From an uncultured Candidatus Micrarchaeota archaeon (GTDB lineage: Archaea > Micrarchaeota > Micrarchaeia > Anstonellales > Bilamarchaeaceae), in the NCBI GenBank assembly GCA_903835325.1, contig CAILMU010000061.1:1-54742 (forward strand): 54,742 nt of DNA, written 5' to 3'. Both the position numbers and the translations under genes were made by a program. Below the pieces are notes generated by a model. That model had not been told where the DNA came from. It worked only from the letters and a program-made list of their open reading frames with translations, and did not search any database. This document shows positions 17,446-46,122 of this stretch, one piece after another (positions within the stretch are counted from its first letter, which is position 1; each line of letters opens with the position of its first letter).

Positions 17446-19787
17446 GAAAACTTGCGATTTTCCTGGTGCTGGCGTTGCTGATCGGCCAGGTATCGGCGGA
17501 TGAGAGCGGCCCGACATCCACGGCGCTTTCCGCGGTCGGGACAAACCCGGACCTTGTCCACGAGCTTTTCTCGGACTGGCAGGCGATAACGCTCATCGCG
17601 ATAATGCTCTCGGCCATGCTCGTCTCCTTGGCTTACATGCTCGGGATTGGTTTTGAGATCCCCTCCTTGAAAGCATGGGCCGGCACCGAGCTTGGCCAGG
17701 TGATAGCGAGCGCCATCATCGTGCTGACATTATGGGTCCTCATGGGGATAATCGATTTCAATGTCGCGCTTGTGGTCAACAGCTCCGTGGCGAGTGTTTC
17801 CCAAGGGATGCCCTCTTGCATGGCCGTCGGAGAGCCGTGCCTGAAGGATGCGGCGGTGTTCTACCTTGATGGCTACATCGCGTCGGCAAAGAGCGCTGCC
17901 CGCGCCATTTTGGTCAACAATATGGACGCGGCGAACAAGGCGAACAAGAGGGATTTCTTCAGCTGCTCGCTCGCTATCTACCCCCTCCCATGCATGCAGT
18001 ATTCAAGCCAGTCATCAAATGATGCGTACCTTGTCCTGGATGTCGACAAGAACACGCTGTTATTCGAGAATTACGCATCGCTCCTCTCATCGATGGAGGC
18101 GCAGGAATTCTTCGTCAAGAACATCTGCTTCCTGGTCGGGCCGTATATCCTCGCCCTCGGGATCCTGGCAAGGACATTCTTCATGACCAGGAAGCTCGGC
18201 GGGCTTCTTATCGCTGCCGCTGCGGCGCTTCTCTTCGTGCTTCCCCTGATGTATATGTTCAACTGGATGACGCTCAACCTGGACTTCAGCGGCGATAAGG
18301 AATTCGGCAGCCAGGCCAGCATGTGCCCGGAGGAGTGCTCTGCCATGCCGCCATTGGTCTATGATGCCAATGTAGTCGGCGGGAAGAACTTCATTTACAG
18401 CAGCCAAGACTTATATGGCATGTTCTACGATGCGAAGAAAGACCCGCTGATCACAAAGAACCTGACCAACGGGATCATAGGAACGTATGACTGGAAGACC
18501 GAGTTGCCGGGAGTGACACCTAGCAAGGGGCCGCCAGACCCTATGCTCACATCATGCCAATCCCAGGCCACAGTGAAGATATCCGACCTGCCGGCTGATT
18601 CCGCATTCGATTATTCCACGCTCTGCGCGAAATACGTTGACAACAGCCTGATAGTGCAGACATGCGGTTCGCAATACCAGACCCAGGATGCCAGCGGGAA
18701 CACCGTGATGCTAACCATAGACAACGCTTCGATAGAATGCCCGTATTTCTGCAGGGAGCTCCCATACCCTTATGTGAATTCCTTGTGCGCCCCGCCCATC
18801 ATCCAGAAGGCTTGCGCCAAGCTTCCGGAGATCTGCAAGGTGAGCCGGAAGGCCACCCTCAACACATTGAGCAATCATGCCGACGATGATTTGAGCTGCG
18901 TCCAGGAATGCAGGGTCGTGCCTCCCTTGAACAACAGCTGCGATGTCGGCAACTGCCTTGAGTCGAGGGCCGACTGCAGGGTCTCCATGCGAAACGATAC
19001 GAACTATCGGATCACACTGATCGGACAAAATACAGGTTCCAGCGATTCGAACATGGCCAATGAATCGCTGAAGTGCTCATGGGCATCCGAATGCCCGGCG
19101 AGCCTGGTGGCAAACGAGTCATGCACCTGGGTATTGCCCCGCACCCCGCAGGACTGCAAGGAGATATGCCCTTCATGCCCGAGCGAATGCAGGGTGACCG
19201 GCATGGATGGCTCGGAGCAGGAGATGCTGCCTGATAGCTGCTACAGCGATTCGTCGAAAACAACGCTCATCGACTCGTGCAGCAGCGCGAACTGCCCGGA
19301 CTCGTGCAAGATACCTATCCAGAGGATAAAGATGCTGGACCCGACAAACATCGCATGCAAGACAAGCGACGGTTCGAGCCAGTGCAGGTGGGGATGCAGG
19401 GTCGCAGGGACGAGTTCGGTTCCGACCGGATGCGATCAGACCGCTTGCAGCCTCAACGTCTGCGGCGGATCATTCAGGGAGACCGTGCCATCCAGCTCCT
19501 GCCAGAAATGCCTGGATGTGGAGGCTAATTTCCATTATGACCCGGCGGTCCTGCGCAACTGCGCCGATTATTGCGCACCGCAGAAGAACCCGACCGAGAA
19601 CCCGGTCAAACCGCTCACCATGAACGGGTTCGTGGGGGGCGGGGATTACCAGAACATCGCGCAGCTCATGATCCAGGCATACCTGCTTCCGCTGTTCGAT
19701 TTCGCTGTCACGCTCATGTTCGTCCGTTCGTTCTCGGGGATGCTTGGTGGCGACATAGAATTGCCAGGGGTTTCCAAGGTGATATGA
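17442..19787 (+). CDS. module gene 3, copy A: membrane protein (781 aa) with a large Cys-rich ectodomain insertion
   Basis: ATGA overlap with gene 2. Signal peptide is MRKLAIFLVLALLIGQVSA. Motifs YMLGIGFEIPSLKAWAGTELGQ, ILARTFFMTRKLGG and C-terminal MLGGDIELPGVSKVI. The Cys-dense region spans about aa 280-735. Confidence 0.9.
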   Translation: MRKLAIFLVLALLIGQVSADESGPTSTALSAVGTNPDLVHELFSDWQAITLIAIMLSAMLVSLAYMLGIGFEIPSLKAWAGTELGQVIASAIIVLTLWVLMGIIDFNVALVVNSSVASVSQGMPSCMAVGEPCLKDAAVFYLDGYIASAKSAARAILVNNMDAANKANKRDFFSCSLAIYPLPCMQYSSQSSNDAYLVLDVDKNTLLFENYASLLSSMEAQEFFVKNICFLVGPYILALGILARTFFMTRKLGGLLIAAAAALLFVLPLMYMFNWMTLNLDFSGDKEFGSQASMCPEECSAMPPLVYDANVVGGKNFIYSSQDLYGMFYDAKKDPLITKNLTNGIIGTYDWKTELPGVTPSKGPPDPMLTSCQSQATVKISDLPADSAFDYSTLCAKYVDNSLIVQTCGSQYQTQDASGNTVMLTIDNASIECPYFCRELPYPYVNSLCAPPIIQKACAKLPEICKVSRKATLNTLSNHADDDLSCVQECRVVPPLNNSCDVGNCLESRADCRVSMRNDTNYRITLIGQNTGSSDSNMANESLKCSWASECPASLVANESCTWVLPRTPQDCKEICPSCPSECRVTGMDGSEQEMLPDSCYSDSSKTTLIDSCSSANCPDSCKIPIQRIKMLDPTNIACKTSDGSSQCRWGCRVAGTSSVPTGCDQTACSLNVCGGSFRETVPSSSCQKCLDVEANFHYDPAVLRNCADYCAPQKNPTENPVKPLTMNGFVGGGDYQNIAQLMIQAYLLPLFDFAVTLMFVRSFSGMLGGDIELPGVSKVI

Positions 19788-19788
19788 C

Positions 19789-20775
19789 ATGAGGCGGCTA
19801 ACACTGGGTTTTTTCATCCTTCTGCTGTTCAGCCAGTTGGCGTTCGCCCAGTGGGAAAGCGTCGCGGCCATTTCCGTCATAACCTCCGCAGCCATGCTCG
19901 GCCTCCTGTATATGATTGGTTTCGGATTCGGCATCCACGAGCTGATATTGAGCTCGAAAGAGGAGGCGTACCAGCTTGTTGTGGTGATCGCCATGATAGG
20001 CGGTCTCATAATCGTCCAGACAGGCGGGGATGCTATTTTCGGGGCGATGGCCGGGTATTCCACCACCATACAGGATACGGCGAAAAGCGATGCCGACGCC
20101 ATGATCACGAACCTAGCTTCCGAATTCGGGGTGCTTGCAACCCTGGAGAACGATGTCGCATATCAAGGTTCCCGGTCGCTCTCCTGCACGCTTTTCACTG
20201 TGGGCCATACTATCAGCGGGTGCGGAGGGTATTCCATGGTGAGCCCGGCCATATCCGGCGTAGAGGCAACGGTGGGGCTGGGGATAGCAGAGCTCAGCTC
20301 GCTGTCAAGGCTGATGATGATCGGCAAGGAATACTCGTTCCTCCTCCTGCTTCCGGTCGGGATAATCCTGAGGACATTCAAGATAACGCGCGGGGCCGGA
20401 GGCCTCATCATCGCTCTTGCTATCGCGCTCTATTTCGTCCTCCCGCTGATGATAATAACGATGTTCGGGATAGCCGACCAGTTCAAGAACAGCTCGGCAG
20501 GAGCCTCGTATAAGGCCGGACTGCCTTCGATGAATGTGATAGAGTGCGTACCGCAGGACACCGATGACGGGACTGGTGAGGGCACTAACCCTGGCCGGGC
20601 GATGAATATCCTGGACCAGATGATCGCGGCGACCCCGCAATACATTTTCGCACCGTTGATATATGGGATAATCACCCCTGCAATAGCATTGCTCGGGACC
20701 ATCGCCAGCCTAAGGGCATTGGCAAGCATAAGCGGCGCCGACATAGATGTCAGCGCATTGTCCAAGGTGATATGA
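19789..20775 (+). CDS. module gene 4, copy A: polytopic membrane protein (328 aa), family member
   Basis: Signal peptide present. Motifs YMIGFGFGIHELILSSKEEAYQL, LLPVGIILRTFKITRGAGG and C-terminal SGADIDVSALSKVI. Confidence 0.9.
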   Translation: MRRLTLGFFILLLFSQLAFAQWESVAAISVITSAAMLGLLYMIGFGFGIHELILSSKEEAYQLVVVIAMIGGLIIVQTGGDAIFGAMAGYSTTIQDTAKSDADAMITNLASEFGVLATLENDVAYQGSRSLSCTLFTVGHTISGCGGYSMVSPAISGVEATVGLGIAELSSLSRLMMIGKEYSFLLLLPVGIILRTFKITRGAGGLIIALAIALYFVLPLMIITMFGIADQFKNSSAGASYKAGLPSMNVIECVPQDTDDGTGEGTNPGRAMNILDQMIAATPQYIFAPLIYGIITPAIALLGTIASLRALASISGADIDVSALSKVI

Positions 20776-20778
20776 AGG

Positions 20779-21834
20779 ATGGTGGATGTGTGCTCGGCCG
20801 GATTTTCCGACTTCATATATTCAGGCGTGATGCCAGCCGCCGCAGTGTCCGCGATCGCCGCGACCGCCGTGATCGCGGCATCTTACATGTACGGGAAGGC
20901 GACAAGCAATCCGAAACTGAACGACTATTCGAAGACCGAGGCGGTCCAGCTTCCGATAACGATCGCTTCCATCATATTCATCGTGCTGGTCATCAGCTCA
21001 TTCTGCAGCATCGACATGAACAGCGTAAGGGCGGTCTTCAACCTGCCCGTGCTCCCCAACTCGACCGATGTCTTCGGGGCCGCGGAATCGTACCTGGACA
21101 ACAGCGCGATTTTCGCCCAGCAGGCCCTTGTCACGGCCCGCTACCAGCACTCGGCGTATAATATCCTGCTGATGAGGAGCACCTATGCCTGCGAGTGGTG
21201 GTGCATATTCGGGCAGTCAGGTTTCAGCTATCAGGGATTCTCGGGTTACACCGGCAGGATGAACCTGATGGGGATGCTGATGAACACGAGCCTCATCTCC
21301 CTGTTTTCAGCATTGAATGCGCTTTTCATTTTGAATTTCGTGAAAAGCGGGTTCTTCATGATGCTCCTGCCCATCGGCATTTTCACCAGGTCGATGCCGT
21401 ATCTTCGCGCTTTCGGATCGATATTCATAGCGATAGCCATGTCATTTTTCCTGATATACCCGGCGACGCTTGCGGTCTTCTCGATGATGGATAAGCTTTT
21501 CACATCGCCTTTGGACGGGCTGACCTGCCAGTCCGGGGACAACACGATTGTTATCAAGGATTATTTGCAGAACGATGAGAACATAATAAGCAGGGATGAT
21601 TCGGATCCGGGCCTGAATATTGGAGAGAAACTGCATGATGATGAACTTGCCAGGGCTTACCTGCCCTGCGGCCAGGATTACCCTGCCCAGACAGCGCAGC
21701 TGGCCGCCTATGCGTTCATAGCGGCGGCATTCCTGCCGACGGTCGCTCTTCTGGCTGCAGCGGCAAGCGCAAGGTATATCGCCAAGATGTTCGGGGAAGA
21801 GGTAGACCTCAGCAGGGTCGCCCAGATGGTGTAG
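20779..21834 (+). CDS. module gene 5, copy A: polytopic membrane protein (351 aa), family member
   Basis: Motifs YMYGKATSNPKLNDYSKTEAVQL, LLPIGIFTRSMPYLRAFG and C-terminal MFGEEVDLSRVAQMV. In frame with gene 4, separated only by TGA and one codon. Confidence 0.85.
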   Translation: MVDVCSAGFSDFIYSGVMPAAAVSAIAATAVIAASYMYGKATSNPKLNDYSKTEAVQLPITIASIIFIVLVISSFCSIDMNSVRAVFNLPVLPNSTDVFGAAESYLDNSAIFAQQALVTARYQHSAYNILLMRSTYACEWWCIFGQSGFSYQGFSGYTGRMNLMGMLMNTSLISLFSALNALFILNFVKSGFFMMLLPIGIFTRSMPYLRAFGSIFIAIAMSFFLIYPATLAVFSMMDKLFTSPLDGLTCQSGDNTIVIKDYLQNDENIISRDDSDPGLNIGEKLHDDELARAYLPCGQDYPAQTAQLAAYAFIAAAFLPTVALLAAAASARYIAKMFGEEVDLSRVAQMV

Positions 21835-21887
21835 AAGGATGGTGCTTGCGATTAGGATTGGCGGGATAAAGGAACAATACAAGCGGT

Positions 21888-22940
21888 GTGGATATGCCTA
21901 TTGAATTCGTGCATCTGATTCTGGAAGGGGAGCTGGTCCCCAGCTCAACGATCCTGCCTTTGGAGATATGGGTAGGCCTCGCGCTCCTCTCCACGATGAC
22001 GGTCCTCCTTATCCACCTCATAATCCTGATGCTCGCCAGGGCATTCGATATCGCCGATCTCAAAGCGTATGCCGAATCCGAGATGCTCCAGGCGGCCGCG
22101 ACATTCGTGATGGCAGGGTCCATAATAATCCTTCTCGGCGGTGCCTCGAATTTCGCATACACTCAACTCTTGAGCGGAGGCCAGGTACAATGCGGCGGAA
22201 GCATGATGGACCTGGGGCACGGCGAAAATTCGTTCGCCAAAGGGCTGGAGATCGTCCGCTGCAGGCTTCTTGAGAAGGCGACTGCCATGTACGACCTGAA
22301 CAACGAGGTCAACAAGCAGGCCAAGGATTCGGGGATATTCGACAAGCTGAACGACCGGGAGAGCTTGTTCGGGATGGCGGTTTCCCAGGGAGACTGGGAT
22401 CCGACATTATATGAACAGGCCGAGAGCTACAGGTATGCCAACACCGTTTCTGCCAACCTCATGATCGCCTTGAACGCCCAGGCATTCTTCATAACATATG
22501 TGGAGAAGAACATGGTCGTCTTCTTCCTCCCGCTGGGGATAATCCTGCGCGGTTTCAATTTCACAAGAGCGATAGGCGCTTTCCTGATATCCCTCGCTAT
22601 CGGCCTGTATTTCATCCTGCCGGTCATATTCGTCCTGACGGATCCGGGTTTTGTGAGGGTGCCGCCAATCAGCAATGTCGCGACCGTGCCTTCATATTGC
22701 TATAGCACTTTCGCCGGGGTGATCACCCTCGTCAACCTGCCCAAGGTCGAGACGATAGCCGAGACCCAGACGCAGATGACGCTGTCGTCAGCAAGTTCGG
22801 CGCTGGGGAACCTGTACACGAGCCTGATAGTGCAGCCTTTCGTCGTATTGTCAATAACGCTGGTGTTCATAAGGTACGGCATGTCCCTCCTGGGGGGCGA
22901 GACGATGGAGCTTATGAGACTTGCCGGGAGGGTGGTCTGA
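21888..22940 (+). CDS. module gene 6, copy A: polytopic membrane protein (350 aa), family member
   Basis: Motifs LMLARAFDIADLKAYAESEMLQ, FLPLGIILRGFNFTRAIGA and C-terminal LLGGETMELMRLAGRVV. The track start is GTG, and the ATG at 21894 aligns better with copy B. Confidence 0.9.
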   Translation: MDMPIEFVHLILEGELVPSSTILPLEIWVGLALLSTMTVLLIHLIILMLARAFDIADLKAYAESEMLQAAATFVMAGSIIILLGGASNFAYTQLLSGGQVQCGGSMMDLGHGENSFAKGLEIVRCRLLEKATAMYDLNNEVNKQAKDSGIFDKLNDRESLFGMAVSQGDWDPTLYEQAESYRYANTVSANLMIALNAQAFFITYVEKNMVVFFLPLGIILRGFNFTRAIGAFLISLAIGLYFILPVIFVLTDPGFVRVPPISNVATVPSYCYSTFAGVITLVNLPKVETIAETQTQMTLSSASSALGNLYTSLIVQPFVVLSITLVFIRYGMSLLGGETMELMRLAGRVV

Positions 22941-25900
22941 TGAAAATACTGCCGATCGCGATTTCATTGATGGCTTTTCTATTGATTGCCGGCTGCCTCG
23001 AGATGCCGAAGAACTACTCCTGCTGCCTGAAGGTGAATGCGAGCGATCCGCAGGACAAGTGCGTGATGTACAATTCGTCAGACCCTGACCATCCGATAGA
23101 CCTTTCTGCCAACACGACAAGCTGCAATGTCACGGCAGGGACGTGCAACATAACCACCAAAGCAGGAGGCATAAACTTCGTGGGGGCCTTCCCAGTTATT
23201 ATCGCCGTCCCCTACCCCCCGGAGACAACCCTTCTGCAGATATGCACCGAAGCAGCGCCCCAGAAATGCATCGACCCGGAATGCAGCGCCATGGTCTGCG
23301 GGGATTTCGAATACACCCCGAAACTCGGGTCTTCTGCCGAAGAGATGGAGAAGGGCCTGCCGAACCCGCCGGAGACCAGCGCGGCGATCAACCTCTACCA
23401 CGGCCAGTGCAAGATCATGCCGATGGATTACAAGCTGGCCAATGTCTTCGAAAACTCGCCGAGCTACTTGAACCGCTTCAGGCTGGGGATAGGAAGCAGC
23501 TTCGAGGAGTATTCGGCGTATAGCACATTTTTCCCTACATCCGACAAGTTCTGCAATGCAAACCCACTGGGCACCATTGACCGCTATGAGAATTACCTCA
23601 CAGCTGCTGAAACAGTCTACGATCCGGTCAAGGAAATCAACGATTCATGCGTGAGCGACAAGAATCCGTCTGAAACGCCGCTTTCATTCAAGCTCGGCTC
23701 CCTGAATATCGGGGGCGACGGGAATCTGAAGACAGGGTATAAAAACGCGAATTTCATCCGGCAGGTCGTTTTCCCCTGGTACAGCGACCAGGCCGGGGGT
23801 GGAAATCACGCGACCCCATCGTCATCCAACGGCAAACCGCTCTATGCTATCGACACGCATGACTTCACCGGCGAGAAGATAGCGTACATGACCCCATATT
23901 CGAGGCCGGATACGAAATTCTATGGCACCGAGCTCCAAAAAGTCTACATGGACGGGGCGTTCGAGTTCGACTTGTGGGTCATAAGCGTCAACAACAAGCT
24001 GGACCAGCTCAATGTCGGCCCGGAGCCATCCATGCCGGCTGTCTGCAAGAATTGCTTCGATACCTGCAATGAATCGATAACATGCATGAAGTCATCCATA
24101 TACCAGCAGTATTGCCAGGATTATTGGGACAACAGCGATGCCTGGGCAGCCAAAAAGAAAGCGGCCGAGGATGCGGTGACAAAAGCCCTCGGACAGAAGC
24201 CGAAGGAGGCCCCCCGGGGCGCGTACGAGTGCGACCCCCTCAATCCTACAGAATGCATGTCCGCGCGCTGCGATACCCAGGACTACAGCAGGATAAATCT
24301 CTTCACACGCGACCAGGAGGTCGCACTGCCATGCAGCCATTCGAAAGTCAATGAGACCCGTTTCGGCGGAAACGTCACCGAATATGATGTCATCACCTGC
24401 AAGCCGTCGATAATGAATCAGGGGGCGGGGGGGAAGCCGGTTTTCAGCACAGCCAAAGCGGATTACCTGCAGGGCAATGGCGATTACGCCACTTCAGATG
24501 CCGGCGACATCGTGCTGTTCAGTTTCCCATTTTCCAAATACCCGCCCGACCATGTTGTGGCTCATACCGAAACAAACCTGTTCGGCACTTCCAGCGCCTC
24601 AGACGCCGGCTGTGTCGACCCCGCGAGGTGCGTGCAGGGGGCGTATCCGGCCGAGTACAAGACGGATGGGAAACCCGTGGTCGGCTACACCGTAATGAAC
24701 CGCGATGAGTTCCCCAAGACGATGCTTGCGCAGATCTGCAACCTCCAAGAAGGACAGGATTACCAGGTGGTGGAAGTTAATGACGATACCGCATGCGGGA
24801 TATCAGAGTATGCGCCCGAAAATGCCTGCCTCATCGTCAAGGACCCGAACTTGCCGGTTGGGAAGAACACGTGCAATATCATGTACGGCAACTGCGGCAC
24901 GGGCTTCCTTGCGACGGACGTCGGACCTCATGAGATGAATTACTATGGAGGGAATCCTTTGATCGTCTACAACGGGTTGGTGCGCACATTCGGAAAGAGC
25001 AGCATATTCATCCCGATATGGCATGGCGACCCTCATGGGCCCGGGTCGTACATCAATAACTATGGTTATGCGAACACGATTTTCCCCGAGGAGATCAGGC
25101 CCCAGTTCGTCAAAGACCTGGAAATCAAATACAACAATACCGGGTATGATTACGAATGCCTCAAGACCCCGAGTCCGGAGTCAGGACTCCCGCCCATCAC
25201 AGATTGCCTTGCAGGGATTTCGAACGCGCCCAAGGAGATAGTATTGATCAACGGATTCGGGACATGCAACTTCAACTATTCATCCCGGGAGCTGGAAACA
25301 GAATACCCGGTCACAAAAGAGTATGGATGGTGCGACAGCTGTTCGCTTGCGACCCTGGCATACCAGAAGGTCGAAAGGAGAGGCGTCCCATACGTGCCGC
25401 TGAATGAAGTCGGATTCAGCTCCATCAGCGGTTCTGCATCGGTGTACAAGATAGACCGCTCAAGCGGAACCCCGGCAACGCTGATAAGCCCGGAAGTGTT
25501 TGAAGAATCCCAGTTGAATGACCCATACCAAACTACCCCGATATGCTCCTGGAACCCCGGTTATCACATTGGGTCATCCATACCTTCAGGTCAGATGAAT
25601 TGCAGCAGCAACAGGGATTTCGAACCGTACCACAAGAACAACCCATTTTACATACAGGCCCCTAAGGAGGTGCCGGAAGCGACATACCTGAAGAACCAGA
25701 TGGCGCGCCTTCTCCAGTCCGGGGCGATCCCGATACTGGATCTGAGCGACAAATCTAATTGGGAACCTGGCGATGCGGGGATTGACTTGGGGAGTGCGTT
25801 GCAACAAGGGGTCACAGCGGTGCAGATCGCAGCCGGTGGAAAGGATCCGGTGGCGAAACTGGTCTATAATATCGGGGCGGTGATTGTGGTCGTCCAGGAT

Positions 25901-27961
25901 TCGAATTCGGTCCTTGGGCAGCCCAGCCGGGACGAATTGAAGAACAGGAGCGCCCTCGTCCATGCGACATGCCCGAGATGCCTCACAGCCGTCCATATAA
26001 GCAGCCTGAGCGGGACGGATAATGCGACCTTTGTCAACGAGGTGAGCGACATCTTCGGCGGCAAGGACTGTTTCGGGCTCGCAGGGAATCCGGTCGGAGG
26101 GCAATGCGACATGCAGGTCGCTGATGACCCTCTGCTTGGCGTGGACCTGGTGATCTTCGATTACGGGGTGCAGGAAAACCAAAAAGCGTATGCTGATGCG
26201 ACAAACCCGAAAAAGAAGGCGGATGCCGTCCTTCTGGACTTGGAGAACAGGGGATCCTACCTTCTTCAGAACTATAAGAAACCGTCGATAATCTACGATT
26301 TCTGGGTAGGGCAGGATATCCCCGGCAATGATGAATACCATGCCAAACTCGCATGGAATGATACCGAGGTCCGGCAATTGTTCAATGAGATAATCAACAA
26401 GGAGGACGGATTGGTGGCTGCCGGGATCAACGGGATATTCTATTCGCGCATCGCTGAATTCGGGCCGCTGGACTGGTCGAAACTGCAGGCGCAGGATGGA
26501 AGCATCCACGAGGCGATGTGCTCGCTCAGCAACGCATCCACGAGGATGGTGGCGCAGAAGCCGATGTCGTTCTTCAAGCGGGTATATGCCTCCGGCAACG
26601 TGAGCTGCGTGGATTGCACGGCCGACGACCTGTACAGCGGGAAATGCAATATGAACTGTTCGGATGGCACGCAATGCCTGCCTGGAGCGGATGTGAAGCC
26701 GCCTTACCTGGTCAGGTGTCCGGATGACGGCGTCCCTGAGCCATGCACGCCCTGCAACGAGACAGGGAAGACCTACACGTGCAGGGTGGAATACGACAAT
26801 GGCTCGGTGATCGTGCAGGATGTGGATTCGAAGGATATGAACACCGACTCATACGCCGATGTCATCTCAGGCCTCAATCCGCCGGATAAGTGCTGCATCA
26901 GCAAGGGCGGGACGAACTACACATATATGCAGCAGTCTGTGACGCTGAGCGTCGATGCGCCGATCGCATTCTCGAAGACCGGGGACACGAACATAGACTG
27001 CTCTTTCCCCTCGGCCTCATCGCAGAAACCCAGCGACTCGCAGTTCTGCAATGTGAAATCGATGGCTACCAATTACCGGGTCTCCTGCTTTGACAAGACC
27101 ACTTATGCGAACCTTAACAGCAAAGGCGCATTCAAAAACGGATTCGACTTCAATATCAACTACAACCAGCTTGGCGGCACCGGGAAGACCGGCGACTTGC
27201 CGGGGCAGGTCAGCCTCGGCAATATTTTCAAGAGCGGTTCTGGAAACCCCTCGGCCGGCGGCACCCCGAACGGAGTGATCACAAGCCCCGGGGCGGCGTT
27301 AGCGCAGGATCCCTGCCTTAGCAGCATGATATCCTCTTCGGGAGGCCATGTCAGGATAGGTTCAGGAAGCGGATATTCAGCGTCATCGCAACCGGTCGGA
27401 CCAGGAGGAGTGACCCCTGGCGGGACCGGGCAGACCGATTCCGGAACTGGTACGACGGAATGTCCGCCGGAGGTGTTCGCATGCTCAGCCGCGGCATCGT
27501 CTTTCGAGAAGGATGCCGAGATCAAGTGCAAAGCGTATATCGCCGATTGCAAGGTCCACCCGTACAACTACACCGCTACGGGGATATACCAGTATTGCTA
27601 TGGCGAGGACAGCTGCCAGCTGGCATATGACCGCTACTGCGCCAATGTCACGAAGAAATACGGCGCAGACGCATATTGCAACAACAATTGCTGCAAGAAG
27701 AGCTGTGAAACCTTCTGCTCAGGAGCCGGAGGAACGTCTTGCACGACCACCTGCCAGGACGGCCCGTGTCCGCCAGAAATGAAGCTTTGCCAATGCGCAG
27801 TGCAGACCGGGGGTAGTTGCGTCAAGGACTGCAAGGATGCGATCGGTTCGAGCAGTCCGATCGTCAACCCGCCATACCCATGGGCGCCTGGAGGCGCTCT
27901 TGCCGGCAAGAGCAACGATCCCTGCGGAGTCTATCAGAAAACAACGGAGACACCGAAATAG
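22940..27961 (+). CDS. module gene 7, copy A: giant Cys-rich, sequon-rich secreted or lipoprotein-like protein (1673 aa)
   Basis: TGATG overlap with gene 6. Signal peptide with lipobox-like LLIAGC. Five N-x-S/T sequons in the first 75 aa. Cys occurs throughout, with a very dense C-terminal Cys cluster and no C-terminal TM. Confidence 0.9.
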   Translation: MKILPIAISLMAFLLIAGCLEMPKNYSCCLKVNASDPQDKCVMYNSSDPDHPIDLSANTTSCNVTAGTCNITTKAGGINFVGAFPVIIAVPYPPETTLLQICTEAAPQKCIDPECSAMVCGDFEYTPKLGSSAEEMEKGLPNPPETSAAINLYHGQCKIMPMDYKLANVFENSPSYLNRFRLGIGSSFEEYSAYSTFFPTSDKFCNANPLGTIDRYENYLTAAETVYDPVKEINDSCVSDKNPSETPLSFKLGSLNIGGDGNLKTGYKNANFIRQVVFPWYSDQAGGGNHATPSSSNGKPLYAIDTHDFTGEKIAYMTPYSRPDTKFYGTELQKVYMDGAFEFDLWVISVNNKLDQLNVGPEPSMPAVCKNCFDTCNESITCMKSSIYQQYCQDYWDNSDAWAAKKKAAEDAVTKALGQKPKEAPRGAYECDPLNPTECMSARCDTQDYSRINLFTRDQEVALPCSHSKVNETRFGGNVTEYDVITCKPSIMNQGAGGKPVFSTAKADYLQGNGDYATSDAGDIVLFSFPFSKYPPDHVVAHTETNLFGTSSASDAGCVDPARCVQGAYPAEYKTDGKPVVGYTVMNRDEFPKTMLAQICNLQEGQDYQVVEVNDDTACGISEYAPENACLIVKDPNLPVGKNTCNIMYGNCGTGFLATDVGPHEMNYYGGNPLIVYNGLVRTFGKSSIFIPIWHGDPHGPGSYINNYGYANTIFPEEIRPQFVKDLEIKYNNTGYDYECLKTPSPESGLPPITDCLAGISNAPKEIVLINGFGTCNFNYSSRELETEYPVTKEYGWCDSCSLATLAYQKVERRGVPYVPLNEVGFSSISGSASVYKIDRSSGTPATLISPEVFEESQLNDPYQTTPICSWNPGYHIGSSIPSGQMNCSSNRDFEPYHKNNPFYIQAPKEVPEATYLKNQMARLLQSGAIPILDLSDKSNWEPGDAGIDLGSALQQGVTAVQIAAGGKDPVAKLVYNIGAVIVVVQDSNSVLGQPSRDELKNRSALVHATCPRCLTAVHISSLSGTDNATFVNEVSDIFGGKDCFGLAGNPVGGQCDMQVADDPLLGVDLVIFDYGVQENQKAYADATNPKKKADAVLLDLENRGSYLLQNYKKPSIIYDFWVGQDIPGNDEYHAKLAWNDTEVRQLFNEIINKEDGLVAAGINGIFYSRIAEFGPLDWSKLQAQDGSIHEAMCSLSNASTRMVAQKPMSFFKRVYASGNVSCVDCTADDLYSGKCNMNCSDGTQCLPGADVKPPYLVRCPDDGVPEPCTPCNETGKTYTCRVEYDNGSVIVQDVDSKDMNTDSYADVISGLNPPDKCCISKGGTNYTYMQQSVTLSVDAPIAFSKTGDTNIDCSFPSASSQKPSDSQFCNVKSMATNYRVSCFDKTTYANLNSKGAFKNGFDFNINYNQLGGTGKTGDLPGQVSLGNIFKSGSGNPSAGGTPNGVITSPGAALAQDPCLSSMISSSGGHVRIGSGSGYSASSQPVGPGGVTPGGTGQTDSGTGTTECPPEVFACSAAASSFEKDAEIKCKAYIADCKVHPYNYTATGIYQYCYGEDSCQLAYDRYCANVTKKYGADAYCNNNCCKKSCETFCSGAGGTSCTTTCQDGPCPPEMKLCQCAVQTGGSCVKDCKDAIGSSSPIVNPPYPWAPGGALAGKSNDPCGVYQKTTETPK

Positions 27962-28150: not shown

Positions 28151-28230
28151 GGATTGTTGGATTGCTTTGTCGGATAGGATTGCCGAACAGGTAGACCGGC
28201 CTGAAAAGTATTTCGGGAACGCACCTGCCA

Positions 28231-31200
28231 TCATTCCTTCTCGCTCTCAGGCGGGCGTATAGGGGACGGAGGCCTAAGCTCCTGGGAAGGGAGGGAAGGA
28301 GCCTTGTATGTCTCGAATCCAGGCATCTCCAGCCGGAGATTGGTGCCCGGCGCATGCGAAGGCGCATCCGGGGTCCGGATGTATTCCTGCTTCATGCTCT
28401 CGAAACCGGCCATCTCGGCCTCTGGACGCTTCCTCATCTCCATGAAATGCTTCTCCCACTCAGGAGGTTCGCCCGGGGCGCCCCCCGCCGGCGCGCCTGC
28501 CGGGGCATGGATCTCCGGCTCCAGGGGCTTGCCGGTGGTCATGACGAAATTCGTGAATCCTATCGCGAGATCGAATGAATTTATCCTGCGGTACATCCCT
28601 TCCTCCTCGGCCTGGCGCTGGTCGGAGGCTCTCAGCTCTGCGGTCGCGTGGGCGAGCTCTGCGTTCGCTGATTCGTGCATGTCGAGCAGGCCTATATTGG
28701 CCGGTTCATGGTGGTTCACATAACCGAGGACAGCGACCGCGTCGTTGGCCGCTCCGCTCACTATCTTCCCCACATCCAGGTCAGGCGGAGCCGAATAAAG
28801 GGTGGGGGTTTCCAGCGCGCGCTCGGTCGCACCATGGTGGTCCCCTGCGGCAATGAACAGGTCGCCCAGATTGGTCACGAAAGAGCCCCCGGCGACACCC
28901 GGGCCCATCTCGGGTTCTCCCCTGATGAAATGCTCGCCGACCCAGTTCTTTGAATCTGTATCGGTCCGCTGGGCGAGCTCATAGCCCGAGGACATGCCCC
29001 GCGCTGGATCGCCGGGATCGGCCAGCAATCTCCTTGCGCTCTGCTCGAGCACGGCCTGGTTTATCTCCGGATCCTTGGCGCCGGCCTTCTCGACCGCCTC
29101 GTGTATCTTGCGCTCCTCCTCTGCCCTGCCGCTTGTGCCCCTGTCTTCGGCGATCCCCGCCAGATCCTTCTGGAAATTGGCCAGGGCCGGGTGCGCCTTG
29201 TAATAATCGTCCATCACATTCTCCATGAACATGCCCCTGAACTCCGCGTTCGCATAGTTCGCGTTCTGATGCGCCTCGATGACCTGGTCGCGTTGCTTGT
29301 TCGCGCTTTCGAAGAATCCGCCCTGCCCGAGCCAGCAATCCTTGGGCAGGATTTCGCGGGCGAACGCCATCGCCTCGTTCTCCTTGGCTCCTGTGAGCTC
29401 CTTCCCGGTCCTGCCGTCGCGGACTATCGGCCCGCCCTCGGACTGCTCGAACCTCAGCTGATCTGTGCCCAAGCGCTTGATTCTATCCGGGTCCTTCGCG
29501 ATATCGATCCCGATATCATTGACGCCCTGGTTCGGAACGTTCGCCAGAAGTATAGCTGCCTGCGCATCGCTCAACCTCTCGCCGGTGTGCGCATTCGATA
29601 TCGATCCATCCGCCTCGCGCCTGAATGTGTTGGCCAGAATCTTCTCTTCGGCAGTGCCGGGGGTCTCCATCCGTGCGATCAGGCGGTCGTCGCTTATGAC
29701 CAGCAGCCCGGTTTTATCGAATGGATCGGTCCTGCCGAGTGAGACTTCGATGCCCTGCGCGGTCAAGGCATCGCTGCGCACGCCCAGGCGGCCGTCACGC
29801 GTGAATGCGACTCCGAGCCCGAGGTGCTCCTTATCGGCCAAGTCCATCGATATCCCGGTGTGGGCTGCGTATGCGCCGACCAGGTCTCCGACGGTTATCT
29901 CCTTGCGCGCAACCCCCGCCGGGCCTGCGGCCTCGGCATGGAGCGCGGCCGAGAGGGTGAGCGGATTGGATTCTGTGCCGACGATATCGCGCTTCACGTC
30001 TATCTGCAGCGAGTTCAGGGCAGTGACCCTTCCGGCGGAATCCCGCTCGACGCTGTATGACATGCCTCCGCTGGTGGTCACCCGGTTCATATTCGGATCC
30101 GAGACCATGTCCACTTTCTGGTGCGGATCGATCACGCCCATTATCTGCGCGAATTCCTTGCTTCCTACAGCAGACCGCTGCTGCTCGGTCACCAGGACTT
30201 TCGAGATATTGCCGGATTCATCGCGCCCGAGCGTCATGAGCTTTCCGTCCGGCATGCCGACCATCACGGCATTGCCCGATGAATCGCGTATGACGCCGTA
30301 TGTCTTGCCGTCCGATGAGGTATATGTCGATGGGAACGGCCCGCCCTGGGGCGGTTGCGATTCCATGGCTTCGCGGACTCCGGCCGGGAGCCTGCCGTAC
30401 TGCGGGCTGCCGCCTTCGATGAGTTTGGCATTGGTTTCGACATATCCGTGTACCATCATGTTGCCCTTGTCATCGAACTTGACCTTCCCATTTTCTACCA
30501 ATGGGATGGCTTCCACGGTCCTGCCATCCAATGTCGGCATGAGTATCTGCTTCCCTTCTCTCAGCGCCGGCCCCACAGCATCGGCGCTCAGCGCGCTTTC
30601 GGGTATCTGGTTCCCGAGCTTCTTGAACTCGTCCGTCCCGGCCATTATCGGCCTGGGGACGAGACGCTGGTTGCCGAAAGGGTCGGTTATCACGTCCTTC
30701 ATCTGGCCGTTCACTTCCATGGCGACGATTTTGTTGTCCTTAAGTTCGGCCCTGGCACCGCTCGAGCTCATGGCTATCCCGGTGATGGAGATAGGCGCTC
30801 CATCCTTCGGCAGGGAGCGCGAATCAAGGTATACGATCGTCCCGCCGACATTGAGCTGTACATAATTGGGGACATTCCCTTTCGCGCCTGGCGGGCCTGG
30901 TTCGGTCACGATGGCGCCGTTTTTCACCTGCACTATCTGGCCGTTGATGAACGCGAATCCGGTCTTGGCCTTGGCATCGCCGCCTTCGAGGAAAAGGCCC
31001 TGCACCTGCTTGCCCTCCATATTCAGGCTCATCTTCTGCGCATTGGACAGGTCGACATTCGTCTTGGGAGAGAGGGCGCGGACATTGAGCGCCGAATCGA
31101 GCGCCGCAGCTTTCCTCTCCTCGGCTTTGCGCATCTCATTGGCGTTAGCGACCGAGCCCTTGAACATGTTATCGAAAAGGAGGCCCAGGATCGGAACATA

Positions 31201-32568
31201 ATGCAGGAATTTCTTTATCGCTTCGTGGTCAGACCTGTCTCCGGTGGAGACAACACCTCCCTTGGCGTCGCGCGTCTCCTTCCCGCTCCCAGCGCCGAAC
31301 GGAACGAAAGCCGGGAGGAGGAACTGGTAGAGGTTCGATGTCCGAAGCGCCAGGACGAGCATGTTGCCAAGAGCGCTCCATGCATCCGCGCCTGGCTGGG
31401 CTTTCTGGGGCGGCGCGCTCGCAGTAAGGACCATGTTCCTGCCCAAGCCAACGAAAGGCACGACCCCTCCGACGATCCCGCTCACGCTCCATTGGGAAAG
31501 CCCTTTCGGGCCCCCTTCACCCGCGAACGGTTTATCATACCATGCCACTTTCGATTTGGCTGCCGGCGTAACTCCAGTCGTTGACCTCTGGACCTGGCCT
31601 ATCTTGCCTCCTTTGGCGCCGGCTGGGGGCGCTCCGCCTTTGGCAGGACCTGCCGGCGCCCCGCCGCCTTCGGCTTTTGCTTCGCCCTCCTTCGCCTCGC
31701 CTTCGCCTCCGCCCGCGAACTCCAACGAAGTGCGGGCGTATGCCATGATGATAGAGCCCCAGTTGATTGACTTGCCGCGCATGCGCGCCTCATAGCGGAC
31801 GTGCTGGCCAATACGCGGGGTCGAAAGGTCGAAGGCGCCGAACGGGTTCCGCCCGGAGACCTGCAACGCACCGACGAGCAGGGCGAGGATTATCAGGAAC
31901 GGAAGGCAGAATTCCACAGAGCCCTTGTCCTTCGCCTGCGGGGGCTGGGGGCAGTAAGGCACGGTGGCGACTGCCGGCAGGAGCGAATACGTCTCCGGCA
32001 TGAGTATCTGCCCCGGGACGAAATTCCCCGGAGGCTGCGGGGCGGCGCTCAGGCTGGTCGGGATGGCGGCGTTCTTGGATGTGATATTCAGCATGTCAAG
32101 GCACTCCTGGAACCCGCATCCGTTGCTGAAAGGGCAGTAGAAGAAGATGAATCTCTGGCATATGGCGTTCTGGGCGTTGTCATATGGCGAAAGGTTGAAG
32201 GTCGCGATGCCGTTTTCGTCGGTGTAAAGGAGCCAGAGCTCTTTGTTATACGGGACATAAGCCAGTATTGTCGTGTTCTCCACCATCTGCCGGGTTGGAT
32301 TCGCGCTCGAGTTGGTATAATATAGCGCGACCTGCACGACATGATGCTGGCTGTCCACGAAAGCGGTCATGCCCGTATCCTGGTAGCTGGCGATGGAGAG
32401 GCAGCTCGGGCATTCGCCGGAATTGAAAATCTGCGCATAGTTGCCGGCGCCGGATTGGAAGACGAGCCCCTGGGGGACGAGCGGGTATGCGGATGCTGCC
32501 TGGACCATGAGGAGGATGAAAAGAAAGGGCGCTTTCGATGCCGAGCTCAGCTCCATAAGGATAAACAT
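28231..32568 (-). CDS. module gene 0, copy B: giant membrane-anchored protein (1445 aa)
   Basis: Same architecture as 11337-15107: GECPSC, CPFSNGCGFQEC, TM helix FCLPFLIILALLVGALQV, then PRIGQHVRYEARMRGK. It has an extra Gly/Ala/Lys/Glu low-complexity stretch. Confidence 0.9.
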   Translation of the reverse strand: MFILMELSSASKAPFLFILLMVQAASAYPLVPQGLVFQSGAGNYAQIFNSGECPSCLSIASYQDTGMTAFVDSQHHVVQVALYYTNSSANPTRQMVENTTILAYVPYNKELWLLYTDENGIATFNLSPYDNAQNAICQRFIFFYCPFSNGCGFQECLDMLNITSKNAAIPTSLSAAPQPPGNFVPGQILMPETYSLLPAVATVPYCPQPPQAKDKGSVEFCLPFLIILALLVGALQVSGRNPFGAFDLSTPRIGQHVRYEARMRGKSINWGSIIMAYARTSLEFAGGGEGEAKEGEAKAEGGGAPAGPAKGGAPPAGAKGGKIGQVQRSTTGVTPAAKSKVAWYDKPFAGEGGPKGLSQWSVSGIVGGVVPFVGLGRNMVLTASAPPQKAQPGADAWSALGNMLVLALRTSNLYQFLLPAFVPFGAGSGKETRDAKGGVVSTGDRSDHEAIKKFLHYVPILGLLFDNMFKGSVANANEMRKAEERKAAALDSALNVRALSPKTNVDLSNAQKMSLNMEGKQVQGLFLEGGDAKAKTGFAFINGQIVQVKNGAIVTEPGPPGAKGNVPNYVQLNVGGTIVYLDSRSLPKDGAPISITGIAMSSSGARAELKDNKIVAMEVNGQMKDVITDPFGNQRLVPRPIMAGTDEFKKLGNQIPESALSADAVGPALREGKQILMPTLDGRTVEAIPLVENGKVKFDDKGNMMVHGYVETNAKLIEGGSPQYGRLPAGVREAMESQPPQGGPFPSTYTSSDGKTYGVIRDSSGNAVMVGMPDGKLMTLGRDESGNISKVLVTEQQRSAVGSKEFAQIMGVIDPHQKVDMVSDPNMNRVTTSGGMSYSVERDSAGRVTALNSLQIDVKRDIVGTESNPLTLSAALHAEAAGPAGVARKEITVGDLVGAYAAHTGISMDLADKEHLGLGVAFTRDGRLGVRSDALTAQGIEVSLGRTDPFDKTGLLVISDDRLIARMETPGTAEEKILANTFRREADGSISNAHTGERLSDAQAAILLANVPNQGVNDIGIDIAKDPDRIKRLGTDQLRFEQSEGGPIVRDGRTGKELTGAKENEAMAFAREILPKDCWLGQGGFFESANKQRDQVIEAHQNANYANAEFRGMFMENVMDDYYKAHPALANFQKDLAGIAEDRGTSGRAEEERKIHEAVEKAGAKDPEINQAVLEQSARRLLADPGDPARGMSSGYELAQRTDTDSKNWVGEHFIRGEPEMGPGVAGGSFVTNLGDLFIAAGDHHGATERALETPTLYSAPPDLDVGKIVSGAANDAVAVLGYVNHHEPANIGLLDMHESANAELAHATAELRASDQRQAEEEGMYRRINSFDLAIGFTNFVMTTGKPLEPEIHAPAGAPAGGAPGEPPEWEKHFMEMRKRPEAEMAGFESMKQEYIRTPDAPSHAPGTNLRLEMPGFETYKAPSLPSQELRPPSPIRPPESEKE

Positions 32569-32606
32569 CAGTTAAGCCTTTAAAAATGGCAATGATAAAT
32601 ACCAAT
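32569..32606. promoter_or_regulatory. 38-bp divergent control spacer, copy B
   Basis: Sequence CAGTTAAGCCTTTAAAAATGGCAATGATAAATACCAAT. TTTAAAAA lies about 22-30 nt upstream of the ATG at 32607. TATTTATC on the minus strand lies about 25-31 nt upstream of the ATG at 32568. Confidence 0.5.
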
Positions 32607-37272: not shown

Positions 37273-37273
37273 C

Positions 37274-38287: not shown

Positions 38288-38338
38288 ATAATAGACAACA
38301 TATGCACCACCGCTTTCAACGTCTTCGTAGATTCCCAG

Positions 38339-39367: not shown

Positions 39368-39380
39368 GCATGGTGTTGAA

Positions 39381-46080: not shown

Positions 46081-46122
46081 CAAATCAAAAGGATTAAAAA
46101 TAGTTCAATCTTATAGTAATGT

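Follow-up and report, generated by a model that had tools for sequence, protein, structure and literature searches.

Closest Described Systems

The retaining mechanism of clan GH-A is defined by Asn-Glu after strand beta4 and Glu at beta7. In the Sus-like systems of Bacteroidota, lipid-anchored surface glycosidases and glycan-binding lipoproteins share an operon with membrane partners of their own. The SPEARE proteins of Nanohaloarchaeota, giant DPANN surface proteins with recognisable protease, adhesion, and nuclease domains, have been put forward as mediators of host contact. Lipobox lipoproteins and AliA are predicted to be prevalent in DPANN (PMC12462473). Micrarchaeota express N-glycosylation machinery and their S-layer protein is glycosylated (bioRxiv 10.1101/2021.04.28.441871). 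This protein, SLP_Mh (Micr_00292), is ~101 kDa in size, contains PF05123 and has hardly any sulfur-containing residues; HHpred reportedly gave a glycoside-hydrolase-like segment in it (bioRxiv 10.1101/2021.04.28.441871). Cryo-ET of the envelope of the micrarchaeon ARM-1 revealed a barrel-shaped docking platform of ~21 nm and unknown composition in the space between membrane and S-layer at the host interface (PMC11329633).

The DNA analysed here (the window) is a 54,742-nucleotide stretch of contig CAILMU010000061.1 from an uncultured Candidatus Micrarchaeota archaeon. It encodes two copies, A and B, of an eight-gene module which includes a giant Cys-rich protein. Like the Sus lipoproteins, the giant would be lipid-anchored and exposed at the surface with a glycosidase-like domain, and its operon likewise has dedicated membrane partners, but these are six paralogues with 5-6 TM segments instead of a TonB-dependent barrel. 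The two systems share no homology, the archaeon has a single membrane under an S-layer and the module has no regulator or transporter signature. The giant would be a very large secreted protein of a host-dependent DPANN cell, as SPEARE proteins are, but showed no sequence relationship to them, and its family lacks recognisable protease, adhesion, or nuclease domains. It is also predicted to be secreted, is probably N-glycosylated and has homologues across Micrarchaeota, all in common with SLP_Mh, but it lacks PF05123 and contains 4.6-4.9% Cys. By analogy with the ARM-1 platform, the module would put large ectodomains on a multi-subunit membrane ring in the same compartment, but no molecular link connects the two.

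The Eight-Gene Module

The module consists of a divergent bitopic giant, six paralogous membrane proteins (M1-M6) and then the Cys-rich giant. This order was found in 20 Micrarchaeota genomes with one-to-one synteny of the eight genes on contigs of up to 400 kb, and a homologue of the bitopic giant adjoined the module in most loci. The membrane genes of module A (15146..22940, plus strand) each encode 5-6 TM-like segments and are located at 15146-16432 (M1), 16432-17445 (M2), 17442-19787 (M3), 19789-20775 (M4), 20779-21834 (M5), and 21888-22940 (M6). M3 bears an ectodomain with 41 Cys. Those of module B (32586..40424, plus strand) are located at 32586-33854 (M1), 33854-34951 (M2), 34948-37272 (M3), 37274-38287 (M4), 38339-39367 (M5), and 39381-40424 (M6). 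The paralogy of M1-M6 in module A was supported by phmmer E values from 1e-6 to 1e-15, and all six have in common a hairpin with the motif F..TR..GG and a tail, GG(D/E).(D/E)L, at the C-terminus. No match to the module A membrane genes was found in any family library searched, and those of module B had no Pfam matches.

The bitopic giant of module A (11337..15107, minus strand; 1256 aa) has a signal peptide, a Cys-containing ectodomain of ~200 aa, one TM segment and a Cys-free cytoplasmic region of ~1000 aa. Its counterpart in module B (28231..32568, minus strand; 1445 aa; phmmer E = 4e-141) has the same Cys partition. The module is previously undescribed and specific to Micrarchaeota. Toxin-antitoxin-type genes were present near the modules (HEPN/NTase at 9883-10861 and AbiEii at 46123-46788), and the G+C content was somewhat higher around module B.

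The Giant Protein and its Distribution

Copy A (22940..27961, plus strand; 1673 aa) and copy B (40424..45526, plus strand; 1700 aa) are intact ORFs in which all motifs quoted in the earlier note were found. The giant closes each operon, as had been claimed, being the last gene of modules A and B and lying at the module end in the 20 genomes. The copies are 42-45% identical over their whole length and contain 77 (4.6%) and 83 (4.9%) Cys, respectively. In both, the ATG and the upstream stop share one base (GTCTGATG), and the giant gene is predicted to be translationally coupled to the preceding M6 gene.

Neither copy had a sequence match in Pfam, NCBIfam, PADLOC, or PDB. The family comprised 252 clusters (representatives) among 1.84 billion, nearly all of 1100-1900 aa. 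Every named cluster member was from Micrarchaeota, as were all 20 genome loci. Genomes from several orders yielded a single locus each, and the distribution in Micrarchaeota appears to be near-universal and mostly single-copy. At the syntenic locus of a close strain (L003), M6 and the giant had 64-68% nucleotide identity compared to 84-93% in the flanks. This rapid divergence could equally stem from virus pressure.

Cysteine Conservation

Cys was the best conserved residue type in the family. In 17 distant homologues the Cys of copy A had a mean identity of 0.74, while no other residue type exceeded 0.31, and 38 of the 56 core Cys were retained in at least 90% of them. The 22-sequence alignment had 58 invariant columns, 32 of which were Cys. 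The conserved core of ~1270 aa has 40 conserved Cys in addition to the junction Cys, and the core Cys count is even. Judged from these alignments, Cys conservation is far above chance. The earlier claim of Cys in conserved positions was therefore upheld, and the loss of conservation which it had named as a refutation was not seen across homologues. The Cys are likely to form disulfides. His was nearly without conservation. The Cys content of the bitopic protein was 3.2% in the ectodomain compared to 0.1% in the cytoplasmic part, with 0.12% in nearby non-secreted giants and 0.85% in annotated cytoplasmic proteins. Cys partition thus appears to follow the predicted topology.

Signal Peptide and N-Terminal Stalk

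The signal peptide of copy A (22940..22996, plus strand) ends in L-I-A-G-C (Cys19) and is lipobox-like, and the hydrophobic segment of copy B ends in SLYGC. The signal peptide ending in Cys had been described correctly, and Gly preceded the Cys in 111/111 family members with a Cys after the h-region. The strict lipobox pattern ([LVI][ASTVI][GAS]C) was present in copy A, absent from copy B (L-Y-G-C) and found in just 47/111 family members. The giant has a predicted Sec-type signal peptide with a conserved G-C junction, the Cys of which may be lipidated. The sole TM-like segment of each copy is N-terminal and there is thus no C-terminal TM segment, as first noted.

The signal peptide of copy A is followed by a Cys/sequon stalk (aa 20-94; 22997..23221, plus strand), marked by sequon and Cys conservation. 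Its Cys, the vicinal C28-C29 together with C41, C62, and C69, had a conservation of at least 88%. The first ~80 residues after the junction Cys contained six (A) and four (B) sequons, with ~0.7 expected. In shuffles of the whole protein the excess was smaller (A: 24 compared to 14.7 expected, z = 2.7; B: 20 compared to 13.8 expected, z = 1.8) and z ranged from -1.7 to +4.8 among family members. The description of the giant as heavily sequon-decorated therefore holds for the N-terminal ~80 aa, to which clear enrichment appears to be confined, and not for the whole protein, where the excess is modest. Sequons A33, A45, A63, and A70 as well as A1028 and A1287 were retained in 11-18 of 22 homologues. 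The giant may well be glycosylated.

Domain Organization and Predicted Structure

The N-terminal alpha/beta domain of copy A (aa 95-340; 23222..23959, plus strand) had the top conservation in the family and a high pLDDT in the homologue model. It contains the motifs C.AMVCGDF, YHGQC.F.PMD.KL, FR.G.G.SF.EY..Y..FFP.SDKFC, and DRY.NY, and D122, D163, R181, E190, S201-D202-K203, D214-R215, and N218 were invariant. This conservation peak is not the region (aa 900-1250) highlighted earlier. The conserved Asp residues could be part of a non-canonical catalytic arrangement. A lineage-specific Cys-rich insert follows (aa 341-425; 23960..24214, plus strand), with an occupancy of ~5-17% in other homologues and five Cys which were not conserved. 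When projected onto copy A, the homologue model places a beta-rich and probably disulfide-rich middle region at aa 426-905 (24215..25654, plus strand). Its invariant Cys are C431, C439, C444, C465, C487, C600, C776, C798, and C801, and an invariant G-W-C-x-x-C (A796-801) lies within a beta-sandwich. Next, aa ~906-1222 (25655..26605, plus strand) are predicted to form a (beta/alpha)8 barrel of the kind seen in clan GH-A, with the strands IPILD, VIVVV, LTAVHI, LVIFDY, SIIYDF, and GIFYS and two lineage-specific insertions. The conserved core ends with a Cys-rich beta domain (aa 1223-1385; 26606..27094, plus strand; pLDDT ~90 in the homologue model) containing 15 Cys conserved at 94-100%, with two CxxC pairs and the vicinal C1318-C1319.

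The remainder (aa 1386-1673 and stop; 27095..27961, plus strand) is a lineage-specific G/S/T linker with a dense Cys tail and the PPYPWAPGG motif. These elements, which had been noted in both copies, are indeed present in A and B, but elsewhere only in one close relative (P0002). They are not family features because occupancy was ~5% in other homologues. The pLDDT of this tail was <30 in the model of copy A.

The AlphaFold model of a short-form homologue (P0029; 1200 residues) had a mean pLDDT of 84.0 and a pTM of 0.83. This high-confidence model is of P0029, a homologue about 26-34% identical, and not of copy A, whose own model was poor (pLDDT 39.7). For the core, a single compact multidomain body is predicted at high confidence. 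In the P0029 model, residues 782-1030 form the barrel as a succession of eight beta-alpha units. Foldseek matched it to GH10, GH5, GH2, GH1, GH53, and GH26 (probability 1.0, E 1e-6 to 6e-8; alignment length ~270-330 columns), with the P0029 and copy A models as independent queries and in two libraries (PDB and BFVD). Matches in the viral library BFVD included GH5 proteins. The best 50 listed PDB and BFVD fold matches were nearly all TIM barrels, mostly glycosidases. The alpha/beta-barrel resemblance of the central stretch was thus confirmed in the models.

The predicted barrel is the eight-fold one of GH5 mannanases, GH10 xylanases, GH53 galactanases, GH26, and GH2, and a beta-sandwich precedes it as in GH2. 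The match is at the level of fold and clan and not of family, because the TM-score was ~0.3-0.46 and identity ~12%. No Pfam GH profile matched in 22 members even at E = 1. In contrast to clan GH-A enzymes, the barrel is embedded in a Cys-rich protein of 1270-1700 aa with four other domains. Across an alignment of 64 homologues, uncertain in its loops, neither Glu nor Asn-Glu was conserved after beta4, nor was any acidic residue at beta7. The usual GH-A catalytic Glu acid/base and Glu nucleophile therefore appear not to be conserved. In the models, the barrel is the sole recognisable unit in the core of the giant.

Proposed Role and Alternatives

The ORFs, motifs, and Cys conservation of the earlier note stood, while sequon density and the tail as a family feature were overstated. 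Its reading of the giant as an extracellular arm of a membrane apparatus is supported because the G-C junction, Cys topology, sequon cluster, 20-genome operon, and barrel agree. The apparent loss of the canonical catalytic residues, the Glu pair among them, casts doubt on its suggestion of an enzyme. The giant probably acts at the cell surface or host interface. It is tentatively proposed, with a likelihood judged somewhat below even, to be the lipid-anchored, glycan-binding extracytoplasmic head subunit of a Micrarchaeota-specific envelope complex for surface or host docking. If the junction Cys is lipid-modified, the giant would be suspended beneath the S-layer on the outer side of the membrane. 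About 20 disulfides would link its conserved Cys, and the N-terminal stalk would bear N-glycans. M1-M6 may build a heteromeric platform or ring in the membrane, and the giant would assemble on it together with the ectodomains of M3 (Cys-rich) and of the bitopic protein. The degenerate barrel and the highly conserved N-terminal domain would bind glycan instead of hydrolysing it. Such a glycan may come from the envelope of the host or from the S-layer of the cell itself, which is glycosylated, and the complex would accordingly serve docking at the surface or to a host.

A rather unlikely alternative is a housekeeping structural component of the envelope, such as a pseudo-periplasmic scaffold or a spacer or anchor between membrane and S-layer, that would take no direct part in host contact. 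The single locus per genome in several orders agrees with this, and the near-universal, mostly single-copy distribution suits it at least as well as a host-specific role. The core is predicted to be a compact rigid body with many disulfides, and a lectin-like barrel could grip the cell's own glycosylated S-layer. The mechanism anchoring the Micrarchaeota S-layer to the membrane is unknown (bioRxiv 10.1101/2021.04.28.441871), and cryo-ET of ARM-1 showed multi-globular densities from S-layer to membrane (PMC11329633). However, the module is duplicated in the CAILMU010000061.1 genome with copies 42-45% identical, and M6 and the giant outpace their flanks in divergence between close strains, which is unusual for a pure scaffold. 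The six-paralogue ring and the ~1000 cytoplasmic residues of the bitopic protein also suggest a trans-envelope machine and not a passive anchor. Unlikely too is an active enzyme of the cell surface, a glycoside hydrolase or another glycan-processing type, tethered to the membrane and with a non-canonical active site. Its substrates would be host glycocalyx, S-layer glycans, or exopolysaccharide, and their cleavage would either open up the host envelope or supply sugars which Micrarchaeota are unable to make. The unconserved beta4 and beta7 residues in 64 homologues, the lack of Pfam GH matches and the essentially unconserved His count against it, and six dedicated paralogous membrane partners are not obviously needed. 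It draws support from the GH-A fold in two models, from the GH2-like order of beta-sandwich and then barrel suggested by alignments of 500-700 columns, and from the conserved Asp/Glu/Arg/Ser/Lys cluster of the N-terminal domain, which is potentially catalytic or metal-binding. Micrarchaeota also lack carbohydrate synthesis, yet have glycosylated proteins (bioRxiv 10.1101/2021.04.28.441871).

An adhesin, S-layer protein, or membrane fusogen (fusexin/HAP2-like) of known family, the outcome named earlier as a refutation, is very improbable. The giant is large, predicted to be secreted, Cys-rich, and sequon-bearing, and cytoplasmic bridges between DPANN cells and hosts have been published, but PF05123 and other Pfam matches were absent, as was a C-terminal TM anchor. 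The identified Micrarchaeota S-layer protein differs, being ~101 kDa and nearly free of sulfur-containing residues (bioRxiv 10.1101/2021.04.28.441871), and none of the best 50 listed PDB and BFVD matches had the fold of a class II fusogen, an adhesin, or an S-layer protein. The least probable reading, with only a slight chance, is that the module is part of a virus or of an integrated mobile element, which would make the giant a surface protein of viral or conjugative type. Duplication within the window, the nearby toxin-antitoxin-type genes, and the somewhat raised G+C around module B would suit such an element. Against this, there were no relatives in 2.9 million viral contigs, the module contains no integrase, ATPase, capsid, or conjugation genes, and chromosomal synteny is kept in 20 genomes.

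The module was found only in tiny symbiotic Micrarchaeota, and this makes the giant a candidate for the means by which they engage hosts. For the proposed docking subunit, the two diverged module copies and the M6/giant hotspot fit a recognition role under diversifying pressure.

Two copies of the giant protein

The window contains two intact ORFs for the giant Cys-rich protein. Copy A (22940-27961) encodes 1,673 amino acids and copy B (40424-45526) encodes 1,700 amino acids, and the two are 42-45% identical across their full length. Copy A has 77 Cys residues (4.6%) and copy B has 83 (4.9%). Every motif quoted in an earlier note on this DNA was found in the two ORFs. As described in that note, the giant is the final gene of a co-directional operon in both cases. 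At its start the ATG shares one base with the stop codon of the upstream gene, and the junction reads GTCTGATG in each copy. The only hydrophobic segment in each copy is N-terminal, ending LIAGC in copy A and SLYGC in copy B, which agrees with the reported absence of a C-terminal transmembrane (TM) segment. A Gly/Ser/Thr-rich linker, a dense terminal Cys cluster and a PPYPWAPGG motif had also been described. These are present in both copies but are not a wider trait, as the region that holds them (copy A residues 1386-1673; A 1386-1673) is confined to the two copies in the window and a single close relative. An insert at A 341-425 is likewise confined to these three. No terminator-like site was found downstream of copy A, and the window gave no match in Rfam or tRNA searches.

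The eight-gene module

The giant closes the same string of genes in essentially every locus. The string is comprised of a large protein of approximately 800-1,400 amino acids, mostly divergently transcribed, six membrane proteins (M1-M6) and the giant. M1-M6 are approximately 400, 335, 700, 325, 355 and 350 amino acids in order, and each matches its own orthologue class. They are encoded at 15146-22940 in module A and 32586-40424 in module B. All six are mutually paralogous (phmmer E 1e-6 to 1e-15), with 5-6 TM-like segments apiece, a common hairpin (F..TR..GG..LIA.A..LYF.LP) and a cytoplasmic C-terminal tail (GG[DE].[DE]L......V). The divergent protein, a bitopic giant, is encoded on the minus strand at 11337-15107 in module A and 28231-32568 in module B. 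It has a signal peptide, a Cys-containing ectodomain of approximately 200 amino acids, one TM segment and approximately 1,000 Cys-free cytoplasmic residues. Consecutive genes of the operon overlap or adjoin at their start and stop codons. The module genes include no ATPase, integrase or other gene that could be recognised. By its flanking genes the window appears archaeal; these encode ScpB, PadR, a HEPN/nucleotidyltransferase pair and adenylosuccinate synthetase.

Gene order differed in the loci of two divergent Micrarchaeota. In these a homologue of the divergent protein, of approximately 2,000-2,100 amino acids, shares the strand of the giant and is located downstream of it (L020:13231-19239 and L023:11106-17465), confirming that the divergent-type giant belongs to the module. 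The gap between the called start codons of the divergent gene and M1 is 38 bp (15107-15146) in module A and 17 bp (32568-32586) in module B. Two ordinary archaeal promoters would not fit into such gaps, which points to mis-called starts or to promoters within coding sequence. In two loci encoding a short form of the giant a small double-zinc-ribbon (DZR) gene follows it directly (L001:13887-14222 and L002:3984-4364), overlapping it in L002. Toxin-antitoxin-type genes recur beside the module in the window (HEPN and nucleotidyltransferase at 9883-10861, AbiEii at 46123-46788) and in unrelated loci (L002:4523-5475 and L003:7173-7424), with ParE among the types.

Family extent and annotation

No credible match to the giant or any other module protein was found in Pfam, NCBIfam or PADLOC. 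The giant matched no Pfam family at E ≤ 0.01. When 22 family members were scanned at E ≤ 1 only singletons were returned and none was a catalytic glycoside hydrolase (GH) family, the lone GH-related match being the non-catalytic Glyco_hydro_42C (E = 0.23). Searches of PDB sequences with single-sequence queries and with 22-sequence and 18-sequence profiles, M4 included, gave nothing meaningful for the giant and no match for the M4 profile. At the CGDF...C.F.PMD motif a MetE-like barrel was matched in the PDB with E = 2, which was taken as noise. The longest family members carried no accessory domains beyond a sub-threshold Dickkopf-like Cys-rich match.

A word-indexed homology search of 5.8 billion proteins gave five proteins only. 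When 1.84 billion representatives were searched exhaustively with HMMER, 252 were recovered (236 at E ≤ 1e-10), nearly all of 1,100-1,900 amino acids, and it was this search that made the family visible. Among species-representative genomes 20 loci were detected, each belonging to Candidatus Micrarchaeota, Micrarchaeia or Bilamarchaeum. The named cluster members were all Micrarchaeota entries annotated as "hypothetical protein", one of them from the order Anstonellales. No account of such a Micrarchaeota or DPANN gene cluster was found in the literature.

Cysteine conservation, signal peptide and sequons

Conservation was assessed in 22 aligned full-length homologues with 22-48% identity to copy A; 17 of these form a distant set. 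In the distant set mean identity was 0.74 at Cys compared to 0.31 or less for any other residue type. The conserved Cys positions described from the two copies extend to these homologues, with 38 of 56 core Cys kept in at least 90% of the 17. There are 58 invariant columns in the 22-sequence alignment and 32 of these are Cys. Conservation reaches 88% or more at 40 core Cys, not counting the junction Cys that follows the signal peptide; the number is even and would allow approximately 20 disulfides. His showed essentially no conservation in the family. Cys content in the module is partitioned by topology. Within the divergent bitopic protein Cys accounts for 3.2% of the ectodomain and 0.1% of the approximately 1,000 cytoplasmic residues, while the M3 ectodomain has 41-42 Cys within approximately 460 amino acids. 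For comparison, Cys makes up 0.85% of eight annotated cytoplasmic proteins and 0.12% of two adjacent non-secreted giant ORFs. These two further giant ORFs, 1577-6928 (+, 1,783 amino acids) and 48061-54741 (-, at least 2,226 amino acids, running past the window end), had no family match.

The hydrophobic core is directly followed by Cys in 111 of 122 full-length family members, and Gly precedes that Cys in all 111. The strict lipobox ([L/V/I] at -3, [A/S/T/V/I] at -2, [G/A/S] at -1, Cys at +1; PMC12462473) was matched by 47 of the 111 only. The junction called lipobox-like in the earlier note ends in Gly-Cys in both copies; copy A (I-A-G-C) fits the strict pattern and copy B (L-Y-G-C, with Tyr at -2) does not. 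Lipobox lipoproteins and AliA have been predicted to be prevalent in DPANN, AliA "with some gaps" (PMC12462473). The junction Cys of the giant may be a site of lipid anchoring.

The description of the protein as heavily decorated with sequons is borne out in part, for the first 80 or so amino acids after the junction Cys. This stretch has six sequons in copy A and four in copy B compared to approximately 0.7 expected, a roughly six- to nine-fold excess, and those at A33, A45, A63 and A70 are each retained in 11-18 of the 22 homologues. The excess over the whole protein is modest (z = 2.7 in copy A and 1.8 in copy B, in a family that spans -1.7 to +4.8).

Predicted structure

The good model is that of a homologue, P0029, and the window protein itself is represented by a weak model of copy A only. 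AlphaFold prediction of A 880-1673 from a five-sequence alignment was poor (pLDDT 39.7), with regular beta-alpha alternation visible. Mature short-form P0029 (residues 26-1225, 64 homologues) was predicted with a mean pLDDT of 84.0 and a pTM of 0.83. The P0029 model spans the whole conserved core and 595 of its residues have a pLDDT of 90 or above, which indicates that the domains pack into a single compact body and are not strung out like beads.

Residues 782-1030 of the P0029 model form eight beta-alpha units. Foldseek gave 216 PDB matches at E ≤ 1e-3, and the best 50 of the 216 were all (beta/alpha)8 enzymes of the glycoside hydrolase clan GH-A (families GH10, GH5, GH1 and GH2) or designs on a GH10 scaffold. 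The PDB matches listed had a probability of 1.0, approximately 270-290 aligned columns, a TM-score of approximately 0.45 and approximately 12% identity. Phage GH5 proteins were among the matches listed from BFVD. The weak copy A model matched GH5, GH53, GH26 and GH10 barrels, also with a probability of 1.0 (best E = 5.6e-8), replicating the P0029 result and placing the barrel centrally. The central stretch suspected of resembling an alpha/beta barrel therefore shares the (beta/alpha)8 TIM-barrel fold of GH-A in both models, at approximately A 906-1222, and its segments IPILDLSD, IVVVQ, VIFDYG, SIIYDF and GIFYSR are strands beta1, beta2, beta4, beta5 and beta6.

The most conserved part of the giant is an N-terminal alpha/beta domain (A 95-340), with D122, D163, R181, E190, S201-D202-K203, D214-R215 and N218 invariant. 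A G-W-C-x-x-C motif at A 796-801 (window 25325-25342) is invariant family-wide. A thioredoxin-like oxidoreductase was considered as the motif resembles the thioredoxin active site. It was rejected because the motif (model 692-697) lies within beta-strands of a beta-sandwich and not at a helix N-terminus; no thioredoxin fold was among the Foldseek PDB matches listed. Its role is probably structural, as a disulfide or possibly a metal site.

Possible function of the giant

Very probably, Micrarchaeota have a new envelope complex with a GH-A-like barrel, to which the giant belongs as an extracytoplasmic subunit. GH-A enzymes use an acid/base Glu and a nucleophile Glu, and the giant barrel differs from them in conserving neither. 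No Glu or Asn-Glu acid/base was conserved after beta4 among 64 homologues, in loops where the alignment is uncertain, and in the approximately 30 positions after beta4 (model 900-906) no residue reaches 50% conservation. At beta7 (model 992-1003) no acidic residue is conserved across the 64. Conserved polar residues in the barrel are limited to Y792, D802, R855, D899, K937 and Y981 (model numbering). A glycosidase-type barrel apparently lacking catalytic residues points to surface glycan recognition, and a non-catalytic role of this kind in surface or host docking is a reading we hold tentatively, at a little short of even. The giant would then assemble with M1-M6 and bind glycan at the cell surface or host interface, with its conserved Cys forming disulfides and the protein glycosylated. 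An active, non-canonical glycosidase would account for the fold but is unlikely given the missing catalytic pair; the giant also differs from GH-A enzymes in having no sequence-profile match to a Pfam GH catalytic family.

A housekeeping S-layer or envelope scaffold is about as unlikely as an active enzyme. Micrarchaeota express N-glycosylation genes and the membrane anchoring of their S-layer is unexplained (10.1101/2021.04.28.441871). Identity with the S-layer protein itself was rejected, as the giant has no Pfam S-layer domain such as PF05123 and is Cys-rich compared to the Cys-poor, PF05123-bearing SLP_Mh of approximately 101 kDa (10.1101/2021.04.28.441871). The earlier note proposed a structure search and named known adhesin, S-layer and fusexin families as rival outcomes. 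No fusogen, adhesin or S-layer fold was among the best 50 PDB/BFVD matches, in whole-model searches dominated by the barrel, and the giant differs from class II fusexin/HAP2 proteins in having no C-terminal TM anchor. Membership of one of these known classes is thus very improbable. A mobile-element protein is, if anything, slightly more improbable still; viral or mobile origin was rejected since none of 2.9 million viral contigs held a relative.

Cryo-ET of the micrarchaeon ARM-1 showed a barrel-shaped complex of approximately 21 nm below the S-layer that docks a host nanotube and whose composition is not known, and multi-globular densities between the S-layer and membrane (PMC11329633). It is conceivable, although a long shot, that the module encodes this complex as a docking port for the host-derived nanotube. 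M1-M6 would assemble in the membrane as a pseudo-six-fold, hetero-oligomeric ring, with the giant lipoprotein and M3 ectodomain making up a disulfide-stapled barrel wall. The degenerate glycosidase barrel would recognise host or tube glycans, and the port would be connected with the cytoplasm through the divergent bitopic protein. If so, the duplicated, fast-diverging modules would set host range.

Host recognition, docking and exchange in DPANN are an open question with almost no molecular players known. The module, with its six paralogous membrane proteins, bitopic giant and giant, putatively disulfide-rich, lipoprotein-like ectodomain, is rare, conserved across Micrarchaeota orders and wholly missed by annotation. 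Proteomes and tomograms exist for the cultivated pairs ARM-1/Metallosphaera and Ca. Micrarchaeum harzensis/Thermoplasmatales host, making the module proteins concrete testable candidates for unnamed densities. With a housekeeping function, such as S-layer anchoring, the module would still represent a novel kind of archaeal envelope machine and, if the predicted disulfides form, a striking archaeal case of their extensive extracellular use.

Divergence between strains

L003, a locus from a close relative, shares synteny with module B at its 3' end. Nucleotide identity was 64-68% over M6 and the giant (L003:190-6302 and window 39414-45526) compared to 84-93% in the flanks (L003:6324-11211 and window 45541-51264). 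The end of M5 was 87% identical. At the protein level M6 and the giant were 66% and 51% identical, respectively, and one flanking protein was 95% identical. M6 and the giant are therefore a local divergence hotspot between close strains. Divergence in the giant was spread over all domains and was lowest in the N-domain. This divergence and the two modules that one genome carries at 42-45% identity suggest that specificity is diversifying. The right-hand giant ORF (48061-54741) is 95% identical to its L003 counterpart, unlike the adjacent fast-diverging giant. The G+C content is 0.61-0.62 at 28001-32000, in the divergent gene of module B, compared to 0.54-0.56 across module A, a possible sign that the history of the second module differs.
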